Part shown: in pieces, positions 3,075-12,543 of the stretch
Position numbering within the stretch: position 1 is the stretch's first letter
Layout: every line of letters starts with the position of its first letter
Notes under the pieces: generated by a model
Databases searched by the model: none
Told to the model about the DNA's origin: nothing
The model's input: the letters and a program-made list of their open reading frames with translations, nothing else
Origin: Candidatus Micrarchaeota archaeon
Lineage (GTDB): Archaea > Micrarchaeota > Micrarchaeia > Anstonellales > Anstonellaceae
Direction of reading: 5' to 3'
DNA length: 64,000 nt
NCBI GenBank assembly: GCA_026414185.1
Contig: JAOAJL010000003.1
Span: 2,896-66,895, forward strand
Translations under genes and position numbers: made by a program

Positions 3075-4742
3075 ATGGCAAAGAATCTGGAGGGACAGCA
3101 GGTCATGATACTCCCGGAGGGGAGCAACCGCGTGCTTGGGCGGGACGCCCAGCGCATCAACATAGCCGTGGCATACGCCGTGGCAAACATCGTGCGCACA
3201 ACGCTTGGGCCCAAGGGCATGGACAAGATGCTCGTTTCCGAGCTTGGCGACATAGTGATAACAAACGACGGAGCCACCATTCTTGAGGAGATGAACGTTG
3301 AGCACCCGGCTGCGAAGATAATGGTGGAGATTGCAAAGACGCAGGACAAGGAGGTGGGCGACGGCACCACCACCTCGGTGATGCTTGCCGGCATGCTTCT
3401 CAAAAAGGCAGGCGACCTTCTGGACCAGGACATACACGCCTCCACGATAGTCAAGGGCTATGACCTGGCGGCAAAGAAGGCAAACGAGCTTCTCGGAAAA
3501 ATCGGCATCAAGGTGGGCATTGAGGACAAGGACACCCTTCTCAAGATAGCATCAGTTGCGATGGGCTCAAAGTCAATAGGCGTCGGCTCAAGCAAGGACA
3601 ACCTGGCAAAGCTTGTGGTAAGCGCAGTGACGCAGGTTGCCGAAAAGCGCGCCGACGGCAAGTATTTCGTTGATGACGAGCTTATCAAGATTGAGAAGAA
3701 GGCAGGCGGAGAGATAAGCGACACCCAGCTCATTCAGGGAGTTTTGGTGGACAAGGAGATTGTCCATCCGGGCATGCCAAAGAGCATAAAGAACGCAAAG
3801 ATAGCGCTTCTTGACTGCGCCCTTGAGATTGAGAAGACAGAGGTTGATGCGAAGATTGAGATTACTTCGCCTGAGCAGATGCAGGCTTTCTTGGCGCAGG
3901 AGGAGAAGATGCTGCGCGACATGGTTGAGAAAATCGCGGCGACTGGGGCAAACGTCGTTTTCTGCCAGAAGGGCATAGATGATGTTGCCCAGCACTTCCT
4001 GAATAAGAAGGGCATAGCCGCAGTCCGGCGCGTGAAAAAGTCGGACATGGAGAAGCTTGCGCGGGCAACCGGAGCCAAAATCGCCACCACACTTGACGAC
4101 CTGTCCTCAAAGGACCTCGGCTCGGCAGGAGAGGTGAACGAAAAGGTCGTTGCCGGCGAGAAGATGGTGTTTGTAGAGAACTGCAAGGACCCCAAGTCAG
4201 TCACCATCTTCGTGCGCGCCTCCACAGACCACGTGGTTTCTGAAGGCGAGCGGGCGATTGTGGATGCGATTGGAGCCGTTTCCTCTGCAATTGAGGAGGG
4301 GCACTACGTCACGGGCGGAGGCTCAACCGAGCTTGAGCTTTCAGTGCAGCTTGCCAAGTATGCAACGGAGATAGGCGGCAGGGAGCAGCTTGCCATACAG
4401 GCGTTTGCAGAATCCCTTGAAATAGTGCCGCGCACCCTTGCGGAGAATGCCGGCATGGATGCTATTGACGCCTTAGTGTCCCTTCGCGCAAAGCACAAGA
4501 AGGAAGGCGGGGAGCACTTCGGCGTTGACGTGTTCGGCTCGCAGGTTGCCGACATGAAGGCGCTTGGCGTTCTTGAGCCGCTTAAGGTCAAGACGCAGGC
4601 AATAGCCTCTGCCTACGAGGCGGCAAAGATGCTTCTGCGCATTGACGACATGATTGCCTCAAAAGGCAAGAACGGCGGCGCAGCCGGCAAGGGAGGCTCG
4701 CCCGGCGCAGAAGGCGGCTCAGGCGGAATGGGCGACTACTGA
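3075..4742 (+). CDS. ths: thermosome subunit (group II chaperonin)
   Basis: ATG 3075 follows GAGGTGAG. Motifs: [19 protein letters not shown], and a Gly/Met-rich C-terminal tail (GGSGGMGDY). An AT-rich promoter region lies at 2953..3060. Confidence 0.95.
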
Positions 4743-4800
4743 GCCATTTTTTCCAAATATCTTTTCTTTCCTGTTTTTTTCTGTTTTTTTTTCGCAAAGA
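4743..4800 (+). terminator. T-rich terminator region after the thermosome gene
   Basis: Sequence GCCATTTTTTCCAAATATCTTTTCTTTCCTGTTTTTTTCTGTTTTTTTTTCG. It has several oligo-T runs of the archaeal intrinsic terminator type. Confidence 0.6.
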
Positions 4801-4987
4801 TAGTATAAAGAATGCAAAACAGCGCAAACAGACACAAAGCTATTTAAAGGGATAGCTCATAAAATTGAGTGCGTCGCGTGGGAGGCGCGGCTTATCTCTG
4901 GAGGGGGAATTTGCATATACCTTCGGACACACATTCTCCTTTTCGGGTTGCAAGCCAAACAGCAGAGTGTTTATAGGAGGTGTTAGT

Positions 4988-7900
4988 ATGAAAAGTGCAA
5001 CAAGGACATTTGCCGTGCTTGTGATTCTTACCTTCTTGGCTACAAGTGCGTACGCCGCCTCAGTTTCCAAAAACGGAGGAACGTTTCTAAGCTCTTACTT
5101 TTCAGGGGCGGATTACCAATGGTCCAATCCTTCAAGAGCCCAAGCTTCAGATAATCAATATGCGACCACCACGCTTTCCCAATCGTCTGGTGTTTCTTAC
5201 TATCTTAACGCAACCAATTTCAGCTTCAACCTCCCCTCAAACGCCGTCATAACCGGAATTGAGGTGGCAATTGAAAGGCGCCAGGCTTGCGCTTCCGGCA
5301 GTTGCACCTCCAACGTCACTGATGTAGAAGTCAGGCTTCAGAAAAACGGGGCACTGGTCGGGAACAACAAGGCAAAGGCTACTGCATGGCCGACAACCGA
5401 TTCCACTGCGATTTACGGAGGGCCTTCTGATTTGTGGGGAGCAAGCTGGACTGCCGCAGACATAAACAGCATAAAGACTGGGGTTGTGCTTTCCGTAAAC
5501 CGCACACCAGGAGGATCCAGGAACCTGTATGTTGATTATATCAATATGACTGTATATTATGCCCTGTGCGGCAATGGCGTGGTTGAGGAAGGCGAGCAGT
5601 GCGACAGCAATGAGGCGTGCTGCGACCAGGAAAGCTGCCAGTTCAAGACCGCGGCGCAGGTCTGCAGGCAAGCCGCAGGCACATGCGATGTTGCAGAATA
5701 CTGCACAGGCACCTCTGAAACCTGCCCACAAGATTCATTCCAGCCAGAAGGCTTCTCCTGCAGCGACGGGCTTTACTGCAACGGAGCTGAAACATGCGAT
5801 GGCAACGGCAACTGTGTTGGGGGGACTGCTGTTGACTGCTCAGCAAACAACATCGGCGAGATAGGAACCTGCTTTAATGACCCTGACAACAACCCGATGA
5901 CCTATGATTTCCGACAAGCATTCACATCTGCCTGCGTAAATGATGGGCCTGACAGCGGCTATTGCACCAGTGGAGATGAGACAATAACCCACACCTGCAG
6001 CATTGCAATCTGCAACGCAGTATGCGAGGAGGGCGATACGCAATCGTGCACCACCCAAGACGGATATGGCGGAATTGAAAGCTGCAACTCAGGTTGCCTG
6101 TGGGGAGAGTGCGTTACAACTGAGTTCTGCGGGGATAATATAAAAAACGGGCCTGAGGTGTGCGATGGCAGTTCAGAGGAGTGCACCACCCAAGAGGGCT
6201 ATGCCGGCGAGATGGATTGCAACTCAGACTGCTCCGGCTACGGCGCATGCATCAGCGAAGAGTACTGCGGCGACGGAATAACAAACGGTTTGGAAAACTG
6301 CGACGATGGCGAAAACAACGGCATGCCCAACCACTGCAACTCTGAATGCACAGGCATGACCCCCTCTGTCTGCGGCAATGGAGTAGTTGAGCAGGGCGAG
6401 CAGTGCGACGATGGCGAAAACAACGGGATATACGGACACTGCAATGCATTTTGCAGCGGTCCAACCCAAGACACCCAGCCGCCCCAGCTGGAATTGACTT
6501 ACCCCACTAACGGGGCTTACCTCAAGGGCACTGTCACTCTCAGAGCAGAAGCGTCTGACAGCGAATCCGGAATTGACAGAGTTGATTTCCTCTTCGGGAC
6601 TATCGGCTACCCGATAGGAAGTGTAGAAGAGGAGCCATATGAAGTTGAATGGGACACCACCAACGTTGAAGATGGCACCTACAACGTATGGGCTGAGGCG
6701 TATGACAACGAAGCCAACAAGGCATTAAGCGAAACGGTTACAATCACGATTGACAACACAGCGCCTTCCATAGTGGTCAACAACCCAGGCACAGCGCCAG
6801 CGACAAGCAAGACTATAAGCGCTGTGATGAATGAGGCAGGAACGCTTTACATGAAAGTTGACGCCGGGCAAGTCTGCGACGAGTCCCTCTCATTTGAGCC
6901 CTATGCCGAAACAACCTTCACATCTGAAGAGGACAACGGCAAGACAATCTGCTACAAGGCAGAGGACAACGCAGGCAATGTGGCATACAAGCTATCCGAT
7001 CCGATTTCAGGAATTGACACTACTGCCCCGTATGTCTTGCAGGTGACTTCTACCAACCCAGACGGCATATATGGCATAGGAAGTCAGGCATCCATTGAGG
7101 TCAAGTTCAGCGAGCCAGTGATTGTCACGCCCTACTACTGGTATACCTGTGGCTACTGGGGGCGCTGCCGCGACCACTGGGCACACCCAGAAATCAAGCT
7201 TGCGGTTGTTCCTGGCGGAAGATATGCAGTCTACTCCTCCGGCTCGCAAACAGACACTCTCATTTTCCCCTACACAGTTCAAACAGGAGATTTCTCTGAA
7301 GACCTTGACTACTACAACGCATCCTCGCTTGTCTACAATAGACAGGAACCAAACTTTGTTACAATAAGGGATGCGGCAGGCAATGCGGCAGTCCTGACAC
7401 TGCCAAATCCAGGCGGGGAGGGCTCGCTTGGCTACAGCAAGAACATAATGGTGGATGGCATTGCGCCTGAGATATCCGGCAGTATAACCTCTGGCACCCT
7501 TGGCAAAAACGGCTATTACGTTTCGGACGTTGTCGTGGAATTCACATGCCAGGATTCGCAAAGCGGCATCCTTTCCTGCACAGAGCCGCAAACGCTCTCC
7601 AATGACGGAATAGGCTTTTCTGTGACAGGAATTGCCATTGACAATGCAGGCAATAGGCAAACCACCACCATCAGCGGCATCAATATTGACAAGACAGCCC
7701 CAGCGGTGGTTTCTGTCAGCTCCGACGGCAAAACCTACAACAAAGCCACTTCCTCTCCGCAGACCATAACAGTCACATTCAGTGAGGATATCTCCGTGAT
7801 GCCCTCCATCCGGGTTGATTCATCGCAGCAGACGGTAACCGACTGCAATGACGAGGATCAGAAAACATTCTGCTTTGACTACCAAGTGCCTTCCCCAGTT

Positions 7901-9421
7901 GAGGGAACATACACAATCACAATCTCTCAAGCGGAGGATGTCGCAGGCAACAACATGCCTGATGACTCCACCCACAAAATTAGCGTTGACACAATAGCGC
8001 CTTCCGTTTCATTGAATGGCGTGGGGTTTGTGAACATCGCCAATGCCAACGCGCTTTACCTCTCCGGCACATGCACTGAATACAACAAGGACGTTTCCAT
8101 CACCATCTCAGACGAGGATCCGGAAACAGAGGATGTGCAGCTTACCACAAATTGCTTATCTGATAACGAGATGGGCAAATGGGGCGCGTCAGCAGACGTC
8201 TCCTTGCTGTCAGATGGAGAGCTTTCTATCAGGGCGACCCAGACTGACAATGCAGGCAATAGCAAATCAGAGTCAATCAACGCCCTTAAGGACACTCAAG
8301 CCCCGACAATAACTTTGCAAGGGGACAATCCTGTCAAAGTGATGCTGCGTGGCACCTACACGGAAGCTGGCGCAACAGCATCAGATACGCATGATGGCGA
8401 CCTGACACAAAGCATAGTTTACGGCGGCTCCGTCAACACGGAAAGCGTCGGGGAGTATGTCCTGACTTACGATGTGAGCGACCGTGCGGGCAATCCAGCG
8501 CCGCAGGCTACAAGGACGGTGAAGGTGGTCTCAACAATGGGCGACGCAGGCGACATCGGCGGGATTGAGCGCCCTGTGAGAGTAACAATTGACGGAAAGG
8601 ATGCAGTGGAAGGCGGATTTTACACAGGTGTGCTGCCAGTGAAAGTCTATGTGGAGGATGCTCTGCTTTCAAGCTTTGACTATGACTTTAGCAAGGCGGG
8701 CATAGACTTCTCCAAGGTTACGATAACGCAAGGCACAAGCCAAGACGGGGCGGCATATGTGACTGTTGATGGAATAGATTCAAGCGCGCTTTCCGGCACC
8801 AAGACTTTGTATCTGAACAACACCTCCGCTTCATTCAACTATGTCTGCATAAAGGATGTTGCAGGCATAGTCAGTGTTGAGCAGATAAGCGCTGGGTGCG
8901 ATGGCGCAGGCGAATACAAAGTCGCTTGCGATGGCGTTGCTACTGCGGATGGCTACAAGTGCACCAAATCCGACTCACAGCTGACAATAACCGGCTTGAA
9001 GCACAGTGGAGTGAAGCAGATTTATGTTGCTCCCCCGCCAGCAACAACCACACCAAGCTACCGGTCAAGCAGCAACACGGGCGGAGGAGCGGTTTATATA
9101 CCTCCTGCCTCCCCAGCAACACCCGCGGCGCCACAGCCCCAGCCGCAGATAGAGGAAATCGCCGCGCCACTGACGGAAGTGCCTGCTCCCACCCAGCAAA
9201 CCCAGCCCCAACAGCCTTCAACTCAGCCTACTGCGGCTAAGCAGCAGCAGGCAAGCAAGCCGCAGATAACTGCGCCAACAGAAGAAAAGCCGCAGTCTCC
9301 TCCGCTAGCCGGTGCGCTGTTTGGCCTTGATGCAGGCCAGTGGGGAGTGCTTCTGATGTTCGCAGTTGTTGGCGGACTGGCGGCTGCGCTTTATCTCTTC
9401 ATCAAGATGCGCAGGAAGTGA
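4988..9421 (+). CDS. giant secreted, membrane-anchored surface protein: N-terminal beta-rich domain, disintegrin-like module, Myxococcus-type Cys-rich repeats, multiple Ig-like domains, Pro/Thr/Gln linker, C-terminal TM anchor
   Basis: ATG 4988 follows AGGAGGTG. Signal peptide: MKSATRTFAVLVILTFLATSAYA. Region 5567..5761 encodes CGNGVVEEGEQCD...CCD..SCQFK..AQVCRQAAGTCDVAEYCTGTSETCPQDSF..GFSC (disintegrin pattern). Region 6128..6460 has three CGDG/CGNG...CDDGENNG...C repeats. Repeated ...DNAGN/DxAGN...IDxTAP Ig-like units run to about 8550. The linker APPPATTTP...PQPQ is followed by the TM segment VLLMFAVVGGLAAALYLFIKMRRK. Confidence 0.85.
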   Translation: MKSATRTFAVLVILTFLATSAYAASVSKNGGTFLSSYFSGADYQWSNPSRAQASDNQYATTTLSQSSGVSYYLNATNFSFNLPSNAVITGIEVAIERRQACASGSCTSNVTDVEVRLQKNGALVGNNKAKATAWPTTDSTAIYGGPSDLWGASWTAADINSIKTGVVLSVNRTPGGSRNLYVDYINMTVYYALCGNGVVEEGEQCDSNEACCDQESCQFKTAAQVCRQAAGTCDVAEYCTGTSETCPQDSFQPEGFSCSDGLYCNGAETCDGNGNCVGGTAVDCSANNIGEIGTCFNDPDNNPMTYDFRQAFTSACVNDGPDSGYCTSGDETITHTCSIAICNAVCEEGDTQSCTTQDGYGGIESCNSGCLWGECVTTEFCGDNIKNGPEVCDGSSEECTTQEGYAGEMDCNSDCSGYGACISEEYCGDGITNGLENCDDGENNGMPNHCNSECTGMTPSVCGNGVVEQGEQCDDGENNGIYGHCNAFCSGPTQDTQPPQLELTYPTNGAYLKGTVTLRAEASDSESGIDRVDFLFGTIGYPIGSVEEEPYEVEWDTTNVEDGTYNVWAEAYDNEANKALSETVTITIDNTAPSIVVNNPGTAPATSKTISAVMNEAGTLYMKVDAGQVCDESLSFEPYAETTFTSEEDNGKTICYKAEDNAGNVAYKLSDPISGIDTTAPYVLQVTSTNPDGIYGIGSQASIEVKFSEPVIVTPYYWYTCGYWGRCRDHWAHPEIKLAVVPGGRYAVYSSGSQTDTLIFPYTVQTGDFSEDLDYYNASSLVYNRQEPNFVTIRDAAGNAAVLTLPNPGGEGSLGYSKNIMVDGIAPEISGSITSGTLGKNGYYVSDVVVEFTCQDSQSGILSCTEPQTLSNDGIGFSVTGIAIDNAGNRQTTTISGINIDKTAPAVVSVSSDGKTYNKATSSPQTITVTFSEDISVMPSIRVDSSQQTVTDCNDEDQKTFCFDYQVPSPVEGTYTITISQAEDVAGNNMPDDSTHKISVDTIAPSVSLNGVGFVNIANANALYLSGTCTEYNKDVSITISDEDPETEDVQLTTNCLSDNEMGKWGASADVSLLSDGELSIRATQTDNAGNSKSESINALKDTQAPTITLQGDNPVKVMLRGTYTEAGATASDTHDGDLTQSIVYGGSVNTESVGEYVLTYDVSDRAGNPAPQATRTVKVVSTMGDAGDIGGIERPVRVTIDGKDAVEGGFYTGVLPVKVYVEDALLSSFDYDFSKAGIDFSKVTITQGTSQDGAAYVTVDGIDSSALSGTKTLYLNNTSASFNYVCIKDVAGIVSVEQISAGCDGAGEYKVACDGVATADGYKCTKSDSQLTITGLKHSGVKQIYVAPPPATTTPSYRSSSNTGGGAVYIPPASPATPAAPQPQPQIEEIAAPLTEVPAPTQQTQPQQPSTQPTAAKQQQASKPQITAPTEEKPQSPPLAGALFGLDAGQWGVLLMFAVVGGLAAALYLFIKMRRK

Positions 9422-9470: not shown

Positions 9471-10526
9471 ATGGGGCTTAGGCTTCTGTTTCTTGCGCTT
9501 CTGCTTTTCACTATGCCCTTTGCTGCCAATTACCCTGCAGGGGTTAAGCTTTACGGCTATTACATGGTCCCAGAAGGGCTCGGCTTCTCAATTGAGAACT
9601 TCACCTACGGGCAGGGGCAGGCATACGCAATCGTTTCTGCAGGCGAGGTATATGCCATCCTTGTTCCGAAATTTCCTCTCTTCATGCCCGAGCCGCTGAC
9701 GCAAAGGGAGGAGATAGAGTCCGCCCTCTATTCCTATTACATCTCAAAGGGTCGCTCCCCCCGCGCAATAGAGGGCTTCTCCCAAATTCACGCCAAAATA
9801 AGGGGCATAAGCGCCTCTTATGATGCCGGCGAGGACAAGTGCCGCATTCTGCTGGGAACGGACCGCCATCCGTGCTTTGACTTTGATTCTTGCCAAAAAG
9901 CATGCTATTCAGTCACCTCGTTCTGCCTCCCGCTTGCGCTTGGCTCAGGAAGAAACTTCATAGGCTACATAAGCGAATTTGAGAACGCAAGCTCCGCGCT
10001 TAACCTCTCCTATGCGGTTGAGCAAGAGGCGTATTCCAATCTAACAGCGAACTCAAGCAGGCAGAACGTCCTCGCCTATATTTCCGCCATTGAGGGGATA
10101 AAAAACGCGTCTTACCGCGCATACGCAAGCCCTTTTTACTGGCAATACCAAATCTGCGCCCTGCCGGACTACTCCATCGCGGCAATAGAACAGCTTCATT
10201 TTGCCGCCCGCAACCAATACAACAACGCCTCGCCATTCTACATCCTGCCCTCTCTTGCCGATGCGGTGAAAAAGCGCACCGAGGCGGGCATCCAAAGAAA
10301 GCGGCAAGCCGAGCTTTCAAGGCAGCAGCCTGGCGCCAGCAAATCATCAAACCAAAGCCATGCAAAGCAGGACGCGTCTGAGAGGCAGAAAAAGCTTGAA
10401 GAGGAAAAAGAGGCTTATCTTTCCCAGGCGCTTCTGCCCCTGGCAGCAGTGACGCTCTCCGTGCTTTTTGCCGGTCTGGCGCTCATCTTTTACGCCTTCT
10501 TTTTGAGGAGGAAGAAAAGCCCTTAG
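9471..10526 (+). CDS. hypothetical exported protein with N-terminal signal peptide and C-terminal TM anchor
   Basis: Starts MGLRLLFLALLLFTMPFAA. C-terminal LLPLAAVTLSVLFAGLALIFYAFFLRRKK. The topology (signal peptide, C-terminal TM, basic tail) is the same as the upstream giant protein. I recognise no family. Confidence 0.6.
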   Translation: MGLRLLFLALLLFTMPFAANYPAGVKLYGYYMVPEGLGFSIENFTYGQGQAYAIVSAGEVYAILVPKFPLFMPEPLTQREEIESALYSYYISKGRSPRAIEGFSQIHAKIRGISASYDAGEDKCRILLGTDRHPCFDFDSCQKACYSVTSFCLPLALGSGRNFIGYISEFENASSALNLSYAVEQEAYSNLTANSSRQNVLAYISAIEGIKNASYRAYASPFYWQYQICALPDYSIAAIEQLHFAARNQYNNASPFYILPSLADAVKKRTEAGIQRKRQAELSRQQPGASKSSNQSHAKQDASERQKKLEEEKEAYLSQALLPLAAVTLSVLFAGLALIFYAFFLRRKKSP

Positions 10527-10590: not shown

Positions 10591-11922
10591 ATGGCAAAGG
10601 TTGCGATAAAGCCCGCAAAAGGCAGGCTGGGGGTGCTAACGCCCGGCTTGGGCGCGGTTTCCACCACATTTATTGCAGGCGTGATGCTGGCAAGAAAGCA
10701 CGGCTTTGCGCCAATCGGGAGCATAACCCAGCTCCAAAAGATACGCCTGGGAAAAAGAAGCGAAGGGCGCAACCCGCTCATAAGAGAATTCGTCCCTCTT
10801 GCCTCCCTTTCCCAGCTGGAGTTTGGCGCCTGGGACATCTTCCCCGACAATGCATACGAGGCGGCGATGAAAGCAGGCGTCCTTTCGCAGGAGCACCTTT
10901 CCCTCGTCAGAAGGGAGCTTGAGGGGATAAAGCCGATGAGGGCGGTCTTTGACCCCTCGTTTGTGAAAAACATATCCGGCCCGAATATAAAAAAAGCCAA
11001 AAGCAAGCTGGAGCTTGCCAGCCAGCTCAGGCAGGACATCCGCAATTTCAGAAGAGAGAAAAGGTGCAGCAGGCTTGTCATGATTTGGTGCGCAAGCACA
11101 GAAAGATACCAAGACGAGCAGCCGGTGCACATGTCCCTTGCTGCTTTTGAGAAGGGGCTTGCGGAAAGCCACCCGTCCATCTCGCCATCCATGATTTACG
11201 CCTATGCGGCGCTAATGGAGGGCGTCCCGTTCGCCAACGGCTCACCCCAGCTCACCCATGAGATTCCAGCCCTCGTGGAGCTTGCCCGCAAGAAAGGAGT
11301 GCCGGTGGCAGGCAAGGACTTCAAGACCGGCCAGACGCTTGTGAAAACCGCGGTCGCGCCAATGCTCAAGATGAGGATGCTTGGCTGCAGGGGATGGTTT
11401 TCCACCAACATACTGGGAAACCGAGACGGGCTTGTGCTTGACGATCCGGGCTCTTTTCGCAGCAAGGAGAAAAGCAAAAAAGGGGTTCTTGACTACATCC
11501 TGCAACCCGATGAATACCCCCTTCTTTACAAGAACCTCTTCCACAAGGTGCGCATTGAATACTACCCGCCAAAAAACGACGACAAGGAGGGCTGGGACAA
11601 CATAGACATCTTCGGCTGGCTCGGCTACCCCATGCAGATAAAAATCAACTTCCTATGCAAAGACAGCATCCTCGCCGCGCCTGTTGTCCTTGACCTGGCG
11701 CTCTTTTTGGACCTGGCGCAGCGGGCTGGGATGCGCGGCATACAGGAGTGGCTCTCCTTTTACTTCAAGTCACCCATGCACGCCGAAGGGCTCTACCCTG
11801 AGCACGACCTGTCCATCCAGCACATGAAGCTGAAAAACACCCTGCGCTACCTGATGGGCGAAAGGCTTATCACCCATCTTGGGATTGAGTATTACGATTA
11901 CTGGGGCAAAGGCAAAAAGTAG
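10591..11922 (+). CDS. myo-inositol-1-phosphate synthase family protein
   Basis: N-terminal Rossmann-like KVAIK..GRLGVLTPGLGAVSTTFIAGV. Overall length and layout fit the inositol-3-phosphate synthase family. It is followed directly by a CDP-alcohol phosphatidyltransferase. Confidence 0.8.
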   Translation: MAKVAIKPAKGRLGVLTPGLGAVSTTFIAGVMLARKHGFAPIGSITQLQKIRLGKRSEGRNPLIREFVPLASLSQLEFGAWDIFPDNAYEAAMKAGVLSQEHLSLVRRELEGIKPMRAVFDPSFVKNISGPNIKKAKSKLELASQLRQDIRNFRREKRCSRLVMIWCASTERYQDEQPVHMSLAAFEKGLAESHPSISPSMIYAYAALMEGVPFANGSPQLTHEIPALVELARKKGVPVAGKDFKTGQTLVKTAVAPMLKMRMLGCRGWFSTNILGNRDGLVLDDPGSFRSKEKSKKGVLDYILQPDEYPLLYKNLFHKVRIEYYPPKNDDKEGWDNIDIFGWLGYPMQIKINFLCKDSILAAPVVLDLALFLDLAQRAGMRGIQEWLSFYFKSPMHAEGLYPEHDLSIQHMKLKNTLRYLMGERLITHLGIEYYDYWGKGKK

Positions 11923-11943
11923 CGCAGGCTGGCAGGTGCGTCT

Positions 11944-12543
11944 ATGAGCCTGAAGAAAACCCAACTGGGCGTTGCTTTCCAAAAAAAAGCAGGCAGTCTG
12001 CTTTCCTCCATCCCTCTTTCCCCCAATCAAATATCGTTTCTCGCGCTTTTTTTTGCCCTTGCAGGCTTGCTTGCGGCTTACCTTCTGCTGCCGCTCCATT
12101 CGCTTGCTCTTTTCATTCTCGCCGGGCTTGCCGATGCAATAGACGGCGCAATTGCCCGCTTGCGCAACCAGGCTACTGCGAGAGGGGCTTACATGGACGG
12201 GATTATTGACAGGCTGGTGGAGTTCCTATTCATCCTCTCATTCTTTTTCTTTATTCCAGCCCAGCTTTTGGCTTTTGCTGGAACGTGCCTGCTGGCAATA
12301 CTCTTTTTCGGGACTTGCATGACGTCGTTTGCAACCGCCTATGCGGAGCACCGGGGCGTTGCCGACAAAAAGAAGATAGGTGCGCAGCCAGGGGTTCTTC
12401 CGCGGGCTGAGAGGCTCTTTATTTTGTTTGCCGCGTTCTTCCTGCTCATCTACAGCCCGCTGCTGTCTGCCGTGGTTCTCTTCGCCGCAGCCGCCCTAAG
12501 CTTCATAACCTTCGTCCAGAGGGCGGCTTACTTCCTGAGCTGA
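11944..12543 (+). CDS. CDP-alcohol phosphatidyltransferase (likely archaetidylinositol-phosphate synthase type)
   Basis: Signature D-x2-D-G-x2-A-R...G-x3-D-x3-D is present as DAIDGAIARLRNQATARGAYMDGIIDRLVE. Multiple TM helices. The substrate is inferred from adjacency to the MIPS gene. Confidence 0.85.
   Translation: MSLKKTQLGVAFQKKAGSLLSSIPLSPNQISFLALFFALAGLLAAYLLLPLHSLALFILAGLADAIDGAIARLRNQATARGAYMDGIIDRLVEFLFILSFFFFIPAQLLAFAGTCLLAILFFGTCMTSFATAYAEHRGVADKKKIGAQPGVLPRAERLFILFAAFFLLIYSPLLSAVVLFAAAALSFITFVQRAAYFLS

Follow-up and report, generated by a model that had tools for sequence, protein, structure and literature searches.

The gene at 4988..9421 on the forward strand of the window (the whole 64,000-nucleotide stretch analyzed) encodes what appears to be a type I, membrane-anchored surface protein, and residues 192 to 284 of this protein are, as judged by sequence comparison and predicted fold, truly homologous to the D domain found in ADAMs and in P-III snake venom metalloproteinases (SVMPs). 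We consider it probable (about 0.7) that the product is a Sec-exported, C-terminally anchored, adhesin-like contact protein in which a stiff disintegrin-like spacer presents an N-terminal head. The source, a metagenome-assembled genome, is archaeal (DPANN, Candidatus Micrarchaeota), as the initial annotation had proposed; the NCBI name and the gene content of the contig, which includes thermosome, CDC48, RLI/ABCE1, and Ile/Val-tRNA synthetase genes, confirm this.

Gene structure and domain architecture

The open reading frame spans 4865..9421 and yields the 1,477 residues originally reported when read from the ATG at 4988; its product is identical in sequence to MCX8174877.1, named at NCBI as [quoted passage not shown]. 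The features are as follows.

4840..4849, forward: TATA-like CTATTTAAAG, one of three candidates (sequence reading)
~4914, forward: TATA-like hexamer GCATATAC, closer to the ATG than CTATTTAAAG (sequence reading)
~4969, forward: TATA-like hexamer GTTTATAG, also closer to the ATG than CTATTTAAAG (sequence reading)
4977..4983, forward: Shine-Dalgarno-like GGAGGTG, ending 4 nt 5' of ATG 4988 (sequence reading)
4988..9421, forward: complete coding sequence, 1,477 aa plus stop
4988..5056, forward: putative Sec-type signal peptide, aa 1-23 (...TSAYA/AS; hydropathy peak at aa 7-27, cleavage site placed by the A-x-A motif)
5057..5560, forward: beta-sandwich "head", aa 24-191, predicted jelly-roll resembling carbohydrate-binding modules (CBMs) (AF2 pLDDT >93 over the region)
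5561..5761, forward: core disintegrin-like domain, aa 192-258, equivalent to Ds and Da of the short K-like type (Pfam, phmmer, profile alignment, motifs, AF2)
aa 194-206, forward: Ca2+-site II motif CGNGVVEEGEQCD, exact match to the ADAM consensus
aa 233-249, forward: Ca2+-site III motif CDVAEYCTGTSETCPQD, exact match to the ADAM consensus
5762..5839, forward: Cw-like extension, aa 259-284, SDGLYCNGAETCDGNGNCVGGTAVDC, doubling as the opening of the Cys-rich module that follows (P-III SVMP and structural alignments)
5840..6127, forward: rest of the ~100-aa Cys-rich module, aa 285-380 (consensus DCSxNNIxxIxTCxNxPDNNPxTWDxRxxFTSxCxExxDxCTxGDxTITHTC)
6128..6460, forward: three Myxococcus-type Cys-rich acidic repeats, aa 381-491 (TIGR02232 and motif reading)
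6476..8536, forward: Ig-like array, aa 497-1183, about seven domains marked off from one another by D-x-T/I-A-P junctions (Pfam/NCBIfam matches and sequence)
aa 499-567, forward: Big_7 within the Ig array (Pfam)
8309..8527, forward: DUF5011 (Bact_surface_Ig-like, PF16403), aa 1108-1180 (Pfam, E 1.4e-18)
8537..9007, forward: membrane-proximal C-terminal domain, aa 1184-1340, four Cys (one homologue retrieved, P0164)
9008..9322, forward: Pro/Ala/Gln/Thr-rich linker, aa 1341-1445 (P 22, A 16, Q 15, T 12 of 105 residues)
9332..9418, forward: putative C-terminal transmembrane helix, aa 1449-1472, plus basic tail KMRRK (hydropathy)

Because two TATA-like hexamers lie nearer the ATG, the leader length is not fixed by the sequence, and the long leader first suggested is only a candidate. 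The leader (4865-4995) folds no better than its shuffles (z -0.62), and an Rfam search of it gave nothing above chance level.

Hydropathy analysis revealed only two hydrophobic segments, the signal peptide and aa 1449-1472, the latter in agreement with the C-terminal anchor first described; the Pro/Thr/Gln stalk and the Ig-like series with its DUF5011-type member (8291..8535) were likewise recovered as the linker and the PF16403 match. Pfam matches to Big_7, Big_13, and Big_3_3 are also present in the protein, while those to FlgD_ig and DUF4073 in aa 1184-1340 are weak and below threshold. No HExxH motif occurs anywhere in the 1,477 residues. We found no full-length orthologue (best coverage, ≤30%); the architecture may therefore be lineage specific, and no studied protein offers a function that could be carried over to it.

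A Pro/Thr-rich segment followed by a C-terminal anchor is also the arrangement of haloarchaeal S-layer glycoproteins, so that the protein could be seen as an S-layer or other envelope lattice protein of this Micrarchaeota archaeon. S-layers do exist in Micrarchaeota (bioRxiv 10.1101/2021.04.28.441871), but the S-layer protein described there is nearly free of sulfur-containing residues and carries S-layer domains of the TIGR01564/TIGR01567 type, whereas the present protein has 54 Cys and matched no S-layer family in NCBIfam and Pfam searches, which makes a lattice role improbable.

A disintegrin-like domain of the short form

The translation of 5567..5761 is identical to that quoted in the initial annotation, and the disintegrin cysteine framework recognized there is borne out by profile, motifs, and predicted fold together. 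Pfam Disintegrin (PF00200; gathering cut-off, 35.1 bits) matches the whole protein with 41.1 bits and aa 190-290 alone with 46.2 bits. In a phmmer search of the PDB, the only matches were SVMPs and ADAMs (best solved metazoan chain, 35 bits), and the P-III SVMP alignments continue beyond the Pfam model into aa 259-284, a segment that is also covered by structural alignments of 88 to 90 columns to 3K7N and ADAM22. A profile built from 14 prokaryotic modules aligned with the 3K7N D domain at all 69 positions (E 1.3e-14). The AF2 model of the domain is confident (pLDDT, 88.4), and all of the top 50 PDB matches in the fold search that followed were ADAM, SVMP, or disintegrin structures, with best TM scores of 0.63 to 0.67 (3K7N, TM 0.63, rmsd 2.8 A over 90 columns, 41% identity; ADAM22, TM 0.67, rmsd 2.5 A).

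Spurious profile matches are frequent for short Cys-rich motifs, and the PF00200 match spans only profile positions 27-75, as might be expected if the likeness were a chance product of Cys-rich composition. However, the alignment is collinear over the whole module, non-Cys residues included, both Ca2+-site motifs agree exactly with the consensus (PMC4885070), either of them was recreated in only 4 of 20,000 shuffles of aa 191-495, and no other family entered the top 50 of the fold search. We thus regard chance as a highly implausible explanation of the homology.

Among the closest known counterparts of the domain is the D domain of the K-like (kaouthiagin-like) P-III SVMP of Naja atra (3K7N), whose length and cysteine framework are collinear with those of the archaeal module over 69 profile positions. 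Both lack the ~17-residue Ds/Da junction segment of canonical ADAMs (PMC4885070 for 3K7N), and both carry the motifs of Ca2+ sites II and III and the "xCD" loop; two additional cysteines in the Ds part (CDCG...AC) are confined to 3K7N. The settings differ, in that the D domain of 3K7N follows an M12B metalloproteinase and precedes the ADAM_CR "hand", while the archaeal module follows the beta-sandwich head. Canonical ADAM and P-III SVMP D domains (ADAM22, VAP1, catrocollastatin, RVV-X), which sit in animal membrane sheddases or toxins, share with it the Pfam family, the Ca2+-site motifs, and the extra-Cys loop, with similarity running on into the Cw segment, but only they possess the junction segment whose disulfides give a C-shaped arm.

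The integrin-binding loop segment, originally thought to be missing, is in fact present as CRQAAGTCDVAEYC, which aligns without gaps to the P-III SVMP disintegrin loop; what is missing is the Ds/Da junction. The loop has the ADAM-type "xCD" form with the extra Cys, and a motif scan detected in it neither RGD nor KGD nor anything similar. The Da hairpin superposes on RGD-type disintegrins (rhodostomin, trimestatin, acostatin) with an rmsd of 1.1 to 1.7 A over 48 to 51 columns at 37 to 42% identity. True disintegrins, however, have neither the structural Ca2+ sites nor the loop Cys, and they expose RGD/KGD on a flexible loop (PMC4885070), the opposite of the archaeal module. The domain would be expected to bind Ca2+ and to form disulfide pairs.

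Prokaryotic relatives and origin

By its sequence relationships, the module is a member of a very large family of putatively Ca2+-binding cysteine-rich repeats in prokaryotes, and it is therefore no metazoan oddity. Matches were found in 25,799 cluster representatives and, among the genomes of GTDB species, in 445 stretches. Its nearest sequence relatives are prokaryotic "DUF4215 / Myxococcus cysteine-rich repeat" proteins (for example, P0004, P0019, P0066, P0136, and P0157), secreted or surface proteins that share the CGNG..E.GE.CD start and a Da-like unit; they carry CRxAAGxCDxAExCxGxSxxCPxD in tandem arrays of as many as dozens of copies, but the archaeal protein has a single unit. Such proteins are mostly bacterial (Myxococcota, Binatia, Acidobacteriota, and Planctomycetota among the best 80 of 445 GTDB matches), and their function is given as unknown in the literature (bioRxiv 10.1101/2023.03.06.531300). 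The supposed rarity of the module in archaea holds in part: all of the best 80 of the 445 GTDB genome matches are bacterial and none is archaeal, but the module also occurs, above the Pfam threshold, in no fewer than three further named proteins from archaea (Woesearchaeota, Nitrososphaeria, and unclassified).

The module is 41% identical to the D domain of a cobra metalloproteinase (90 aligned columns), which could suggest that it was recently acquired from an animal or another eukaryote and acts like a venom disintegrin in blocking an integrin-type receptor. Against this, prokaryotic modules score 52 to 69 bits and solved metazoan chains at most 35 bits, and in the prokaryotic set the 17-residue junction is as a rule absent, giving the short form. 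The G+C content of the gene (0.529) is close to that of the window (0.544), only the short Cys-rich module being higher (0.595), and the neighborhood is one of housekeeping genes, so that neither composition nor context shows any sign of recent transfer. A venom-like action is further disfavored by the RGD-free loop with its ADAM-type Cys, since such a loop is buried in ADAMs (PMC4885070). Recent eukaryotic acquisition is accordingly very unlikely, and the domain acquisition suggested in the initial annotation is borne out only in part, the module being abundant in bacteria.

Cysteine-rich modules downstream

The ~100-aa Cys-rich module has dozens of copies among the retrieved proteins, but aa 285-380 matched nothing in Pfam, had no relative in a PDB sequence search, and were poorly modeled (AF2 confidence, <50); no relation to ADAM_CR was found by Pfam or PDB sequence search. 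Three repeats of the proposed CGDG/CGNG...CDDGENNG...C type do lie at 6128..6460, each opened by a site-II-like CG[DN]xxx[EN]x[GPL]ExCD, although the first lacks CDDGENNG. Profile support for them is divided: TIGR02232 (cut-off, 20.8 bits) matches three stretches of the isolated segment with 28.1 bits but reaches only 16.4 bits in the whole protein, and the score of Pfam DUF4215 (22.5) falls short of the cut-off for that family (27).

Head domain and proposed function

In a Foldseek search, the head came closest in structure to lectins and to CBMs that bind xylan, glucan, or galactan (CBM4, CBM22, CBM11, and CBM61; TM 0.5 to 0.56 normalized to the target, 7 to 14% identity), a weak likeness that hints at a lectin/CBM-like fold. 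None of 22 head homologues had a Pfam match in this domain, a family without a Pfam model. About 16 of the 22 extend beyond the head, and in these a CGNG repeat is fused directly to it.

These matches would also suit a substrate-capturing protein, in which the CBM-like head seizes environmental polysaccharide or particulates on a stalk reaching past the S-layer and no host is involved; head homologues also occur in SLH- or VWA-containing proteins of bacteria, which need no host. But the head resembles CBMs only weakly, neither the protein itself nor an adjoining gene includes a glycoside hydrolase, and cultivated Micrarchaeota are host dependent (PMC8975820). We consider capture of this kind possible but unlikely.

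An adhesive function is the most likely, although the protein has only seven N-glycosylation sequons, which count against it. For small-celled CPR bacteria, a role in rigidity or attachment has been suggested for large Cys-rich extracellular proteins (PMC4736985). From the membrane outward, the adhesin-like protein would consist of the transmembrane helix, the Pro/Ala/Gln/Thr-rich spacer, the membrane-proximal domain, about seven Ig-like domains, the three Myxococcus-type repeats, the ~100-aa Cys-rich module, the disintegrin-like domain, and, at the tip, the beta-sandwich head. As the D domain of ADAMs is rigid with a buried loop, we infer that the archaeal module is a stiff spacer and not an integrin-type ligand, a rigid arm that disulfides and Ca2+ may hold together. 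The head, carried on its Ig-domain stalk, may then bind a surface component of a host cell or substrate, possibly a glycan.

Disintegrin-like module of the surface protein

The 1,477-residue surface protein MCX8174877.1 (positions 4988 to 9421, + strand) is a new member of the known Disintegrin domain family. The initial annotation had proposed this relationship from the residues encoded by 5567 to 5761, which are identical in our translation, and the proposal proves stronger than could be judged at that stage: the score of the Pfam Disintegrin model is above its cutoff, the motifs are exact, and the fold search agrees. PF00200 (gathering cutoff, 35.1 bits) scored 41.1 bits on the whole protein, 43.5 bits on aa 24 to 400, and 46.2 bits on aa 190 to 290, with the match spanning profile positions 27 to 75. 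The resemblance is real on four independent lines, namely, PDB sequence comparison, PDB profile comparison, Ca2+-site motifs, and predicted fold.

When aa 185 to 381 were compared with all PDB sequences by phmmer, the only matches were P-III snake venom metalloproteinases (SVMPs) and ADAM22/ADAM17, headed by RVV-X (E = 1.2e-7). A profile built from alignment A3 (the window module plus 13 prokaryotic relatives) matched the D domain of the kaouthiagin-like (K-like) P-III SVMP of Naja atra (PDB 3K7N) over all 69 positions (E = 1.3e-14), with profile positions 1 to 69 corresponding to residues 214 to 285 and each profile Cys falling on a chain Cys. The next PDB matches of this profile were ecarin, RVV-X, and catrocollastatin (E = 1e-12 to 1e-13), and the similarity to P-III SVMPs continues beyond the Pfam model into a Cw-like stretch, SDGLYCNGAETC...C.

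In ADAM D domains, structural Ca2+ ions lie buried at sites II and III, whose consensus sequences are XCGN(X)3EXGEXCD and CD(X)2(E/D)XCXG(X)4C(X)2(D/N), respectively (PMC4885070). Both predicted sites match exactly in the archaeal module, site II as LCGNGVVEEGEQCD (aa 193 to 206) and site III as CDVAEYCTGTSETCPQD (aa 233 to 249); when the Cys-rich region is shuffled, either motif arises in 4 of 20,000 trials. For aa 190 to 290, AlphaFold2 gave a model with a mean pLDDT of 88.4 from a clean 36-sequence alignment (A5), and the best 50 Foldseek matches of this model in the PDB were all ADAM, SVMP, or disintegrin structures. The predicted fold superimposes on 3K7N with a query-normalized TM score of 0.63 (rmsd 2.8 A, 90 columns, 41% identity), on ADAM22 with a query-normalized TM score of 0.67 (rmsd 2.5 A), and on small disintegrins with an rmsd of 1.1 to 1.7 A over ~50 columns. 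Lack of a profile match and an incompatible fold had been named beforehand as grounds against homology; what was found is a PF00200 match of 41.1 to 46.2 bits and an ADAM-like predicted fold. That Cys-rich composition produced the resemblance by chance can be excluded, since the alignment is collinear, the motifs match, and the fold search agrees.

Loop, junction, and resemblance to the short ADAM arm

The integrin-binding loop had been described as missing, which is wrong. Its sequence is RQAAGTCDVAEY, and because CRQAAGTCDVAEYCTGTSETCPQD aligns gap-free with CRRARDECDVPEHCTGQSAECPRD of RVV-X, the loop is present in the ADAM and P-III SVMP "xCD" form, with an extra Cys and without RGD. No RGD, KGD, or MLD-type tripeptide occurs in the module loop; the protein has just one tripeptide of this kind, MGD at aa 1184, outside the module. 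In true integrin-blocking disintegrins, a flexible loop that has no Cys bears the tripeptide at its tip, whereas the archaeal loop has the Cys and no tripeptide.

Canonical ADAMs and most P-III SVMPs have a junction of ~17 residues, including cysteines, between Ds and Da, successive parts of the D (disintegrin-like) arm, but this junction is absent from the archaeal module, as it is from the K-like proteinase, which the same deletion makes I-shaped (PMC4885070). The cysteine framework matched is thus the short K-like one and not the canonical one, and K-like aligns in one piece whereas RVV-X and atragin align in two because the archaeal module does not have the junction segment. ADAM/reprolysin (M12B) proteinases have an M12B domain with HExxH upstream of the D domain and ADAM_CR downstream of it; the archaeal protein has neither, as no HExxH was found anywhere in it and neither Reprolysin nor ADAM_CR gave a Pfam match, leaving it with no protease domain.

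Gene setting

The open reading frame extends from 4865 to 9421 (+). A GGAGGTG motif precedes the ATG at 4988, and the protein then begins with a signal peptide of typical type (MKSATRTFAVLVILTFLATSAYA followed by AS), so the 1,477-aa reading is the sensible one. The identical protein MCX8174877.1, encoded on a 99-kb contig, is labeled at NCBI [quoted passage not shown] and automated annotation has already given it a PF00200 tag. A thermosome gene lies directly upstream, and the window also codes for S-adenosylhomocysteine hydrolase, myo-inositol-1-phosphate synthase, CDP-alcohol phosphatidyltransferase, a P-type ATPase, NAD synthase, a class-I tRNA synthetase, RLI/ABCE1, and CDC48. Given the Micrarchaeota name and these neighbors, the setting is a housekeeping one, and the archaeal origin of the gene is secure. 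The G+C content of the gene (0.529) is close to that of the window (0.544). Within the gene, the disintegrin-like segment (5567 to 5761) has a G+C content of 0.595 versus 0.529 for the whole, which we do not take as a sign of foreign origin because the stretch is short and has many Cys, Gly, and Ala codons.

In the leader, CTATTTAAAG at 4840 to 4849, lying 147 nt from the ATG, could plausibly serve as a TATA box, and two more TATA-like candidates are present, GCATATAC at ~4914 and GTTTATAG at ~4969. An Rfam search of the leader region gave no match above chance level, and its folding was no better than that of shuffled sequences (z = -0.62), indicating no unusual stability. Just past the thermosome stop codon (4740 to 4742), a long T-rich tract at 4760 to 4795 looks like a putative archaeal oligo-T terminator of the thermosome gene, which speaks for a separate promoter in front of the surface-protein gene.

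On the other side, an open reading frame at 9471 to 10526 (+; 351 aa) begins 49 nt 3' of the gene. Its hypothetical product, MCX8174878.1, has hydrophobic segments at both termini, several Cys residues, and no Pfam family; the gene may be cotranscribed with that of the surface protein, and the product could be a partner membrane protein. The adjoining myo-inositol-1-phosphate synthase and CDP-alcohol phosphatidyltransferase genes (10591 to 12543, +) form the pair expected for synthesis of an archaetidylinositol-type lipid head group; for a DPANN genome, with its reduced lipid metabolism, this is noteworthy.

Domain organization outside the disintegrin-like module

Besides the disintegrin-like domain (aa 192 to 284), further regions include the following.

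Regions of the surface protein other than the disintegrin-like domain
5057 to 5560 (aa 24 to 191), + strand: N-terminal head, a predicted beta-sandwich (AlphaFold2 pLDDT >93)
5762 to 6127 (aa 259 to 380), + strand: Cys-rich module of ~100 residues, with a consensus that recurs in relatives
aa 497 to 1183, + strand: Ig-like array of ~7 domains, with D-x-T-A-P junctions between domains
8537 to 9007 (aa 1184 to 1340), + strand: membrane-proximal domain with four Cys; one homologue retrieved (P0164)

The predicted fold of the head weakly resembles the jelly-rolls of CBM4, CBM22, and CBM11; its nearest structures are these three, CBM61, and lectins, at TM scores of 0.5 to 0.56 and 7 to 14% identity. 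At least 22 homologues of the head were retrieved, none with a Pfam assignment for this domain. In the ~16 homologues that extend past the head, its last strand (..VDxIxItVyY) passes straight into a CGNG/CGDG Cys-rich repeat, and because of this direct connection the head and first repeat look like a conserved two-part unit.

The ~100-residue Cys-rich module has the consensus C.DGLYCNG.ETC...DCS.NNI..I.TC.N.PDNNP.TWD.R..FTS.C.E..D.CT.GD.TITHTC and occurs in many retrieved proteins (among them P0134, P0166, P0190, and P0099), often in tandem (at least 12 copies in the relative P0128), and it is found in named DPANN and CPR proteins, namely, those of Woesearchaeota, Aenigmatarchaeota, and Patescibacteria. 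It has no Pfam match, and its profile found none in the PDB (best E = 0.23, to scytovirin). An AlphaFold2 model of aa 280 to 400 had a pLDDT of <50. An identification of this module with the ADAM_CR "hand," the domain after the D domain in ADAMs, was rejected for lack of evidence, since it has neither a Pfam match nor a PDB sequence relative. MAFFT wrongly placed fragments of the module onto CGNG columns, and three misaligned rows stayed in alignment A2.

The remaining architecture was largely described correctly by the initial annotation. Three Cys-rich repeats are present at 6128 to 6460: TIGR02232 (cutoff, 20.8) scored 28.1 bits in three stretches on isolated aa 377 to 500 but reached only 16.4 bits when applied to the full-length protein, and DUF4215 (PF13948) scored 22.5 bits against a cutoff of 27. 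By phmmer, the repeat segment was matched by 84 of the 120 first-search homologues, most of which carry PF13948. The DUF5011-type Ig-like domain is a full-length match to PF16403 at aa 1108 to 1180 (67.1 bits; cutoff, 27; E = 1.4e-18), and Big_7, Big_13, and Big_3_3 match other parts of the array, bearing out the further Ig-like modules. The membrane-proximal domain has only weak, subthreshold similarities to FlgD_ig and DUF4073. It is followed by the expected stalk, a linker rich in P, A, Q, and T (aa 1341 to 1445), and by the C-terminal membrane anchor: the only hydrophobic segments of the protein are the signal peptide and aa 1449 to 1472, the latter followed by KMRRK. No full-length orthologue of the 1,477-aa protein was found, the best coverage being 30%. 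These homologue searches were informative with 500-aa and 1,477-aa queries; a 188-aa query of the Cys-rich segment returned four proteins of 270 to 330 aa and missed its own match.

Relatives and distribution of the module

Judged by alignment scores, the nearest relatives of the module are prokaryotic, not animal: it scores 52 to 69 bits against metagenomic proteins versus at most 35 bits against any solved metazoan chain. The best relative, P0001, is 58% identical across the disintegrin-like module and the module that follows, and because its gene adjoins a GGGP-synthase-family and Fe-ADH_2-family gene pair on its contig, the context suggests that P0001 comes from an archaeon. Named archaeal proteins above the PF00200 threshold are P0166 (Woesearchaeota), P0190 (unclassified archaeon), and P0243 (Nitrososphaeria), and P0134 (Patescibacteria) likewise exceeds it.

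A scan of GTDB species-representative genomes with a 4-sequence alignment and the patterns ..CDVAE and CTGTS..CP confirmed at least 445 stretches, a lower bound whose taxonomic spread is biased toward close variants because both patterns are narrow. The best 80 of the 445 are all bacterial and include Myxococcota/Polyangia, Binatia, Acidobacteriota, and Planctomycetota. With the A3 profile, HMMER was run exhaustively against 1.84 billion cluster representatives and returned 25,799 proteins at E <=1e-3, a count that takes in DUF4215-only proteins and eukaryotic ADAMs, and 2,671 proteins at E <=1e-30, with up to 47 matched stretches per protein.

In many bacterial proteins, one CGNG..E.GE.CD..CC..C unit precedes 3 to 24 tandem 32-residue "CRxAAGxCDxAExCxGxSxxCPxD" units; the opening unit is recognized by TIGR02232/DUF4215, and each of those in tandem matches PF00200 positions 45 to 75. 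This tandem unit, which is Da-like, is the ADAM Ca2+ site III motif. Six of the retrieved relatives (P0004, P0019, P0066, P0136, P0157, and P0106) array it up to dozens of times. In the myxobacterial protein P0106, the units are joined with a metalloprotease-like domain and a MYXO-CTERM anchor in a layout that superficially parallels an ADAM.

The initial annotation had called a disintegrin-type module in an archaeon unusual and suggestive of domain acquisition. The module is indeed uncommon in archaea, but it is not unique, given the carriers in Woesearchaeota, Nitrososphaeria, and an unclassified archaeon and its abundance in bacteria. Nothing points to an animal source or a recent transfer, and a metazoan-derived, integrin-blocking role is practically excluded by the loop sequence, the closer prokaryotic relatives, and the genomic context. 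No description of disintegrin-like modules in bacteria or archaea was found in the literature covered, which includes few subscription journals.

Possible prokaryotic origin of the ADAM arm

A joint reading of these observations, to which we tentatively assign a probability of about 0.3, is that the ADAM/snake venom disintegrin-like domain may have branched off, in eukaryotes, from a large prokaryotic system of mini-modules that bind Ca2+ and are locked by disulfides. Ds would then correspond to one Myxococcus-type (TIGR02232/DUF4215) repeat and Da to one "CR..CD..E.C.G....CP.D" repeat, arrayed up to dozens of times in prokaryotes, and the short K-like form would represent the ancestral layout. 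Small-celled episymbionts (DPANN archaea and CPR bacteria) would have joined the arm with two hitherto undescribed modules, a beta-sandwich head and the ~100-aa Cys-rich repeat, to give host-contact fibers. The K-like D domain matches neither the TIGR02232 nor the DUF4215 model, so the link between Ds and DUF4215 depends only on prokaryotic intermediates, such as the relative P0003, residues 194 to 228 of which reach 47 bits on TIGR02232 and fall within the columns of A3 that correspond to Ds; the A3 profile in turn matches the K-like D domain.

Probable role of the protein

Disulfides and permanently bound Ca2+ hold the Ds/Da/Cw arm of ADAMs as a rigid scaffold, whose loop is buried rather than offered to integrins (PMC4885070). 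Since the archaeal module has features of this structural-arm type and none of those of RGD disintegrins, it may act by analogy as a stiff spacer that, along with the Ig array and the remaining Cys-rich modules, would hold the head tens of nanometers away from the membrane, reaching through the S-layer, a structure present in Micrarchaeota (bioRxiv 10.1101/2021.04.28.441871). The head would be the leading candidate for binding a ligand, which may be a glycan.

Cultivated Micrarchaeota depend on Thermoplasmatales hosts (PMC8975820), and small-celled CPR bacteria have large Cys-rich extracellular proteins, proposed to serve rigidity or attachment (PMC4736985). Taken with the candidate ligand-binding head, this host dependence and precedent make an adhesin-like role in host or substrate contact the most likely function. 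Capture of a substrate in place of adhesion to a host would fit the present data as well, and we consider it the less likely of the two. The protein is also unlikely to be an S-layer component: the S-layer protein described for Micrarchaeota carries TIGR01564/TIGR01567 domains and is nearly free of Cys (bioRxiv 10.1101/2021.04.28.441871), whereas the surface protein has 54 Cys residues and gave no S-layer family match in NCBIfam or Pfam at E values up to 1. For the contact itself, the disintegrin-like part is a weaker candidate than the two modules beside it, the N-terminal head and the ~100-aa Cys-rich repeat.

Implications

For the gene itself the result is modest, as automated Pfam annotation had already flagged the domain. 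The more interesting by-products are the size and repeat organization of the prokaryotic disintegrin-like family, the exact conservation of the ADAM Ca2+-site motifs, and the two flanking modules that have no family assignment; none of these was found described in the same literature, with its limited share of subscription journals. To our knowledge, reviews on ADAMs and venom metalloproteinases regard the disintegrin-like domain as having arisen in animals. One structural overview of ADAMs and SVMPs makes no mention of bacteria or prokaryotes (PMC4885070). A DPANN archaeon carries a well-preserved disintegrin-like copy in which both predicted Ca2+ sites are kept, and the tens of thousands of prokaryotic relatives give a concrete basis from which to search for the origin of the ADAM arm. 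The finding is also relevant to the way in which very small archaeal symbionts may construct long, rigid surface fibers.
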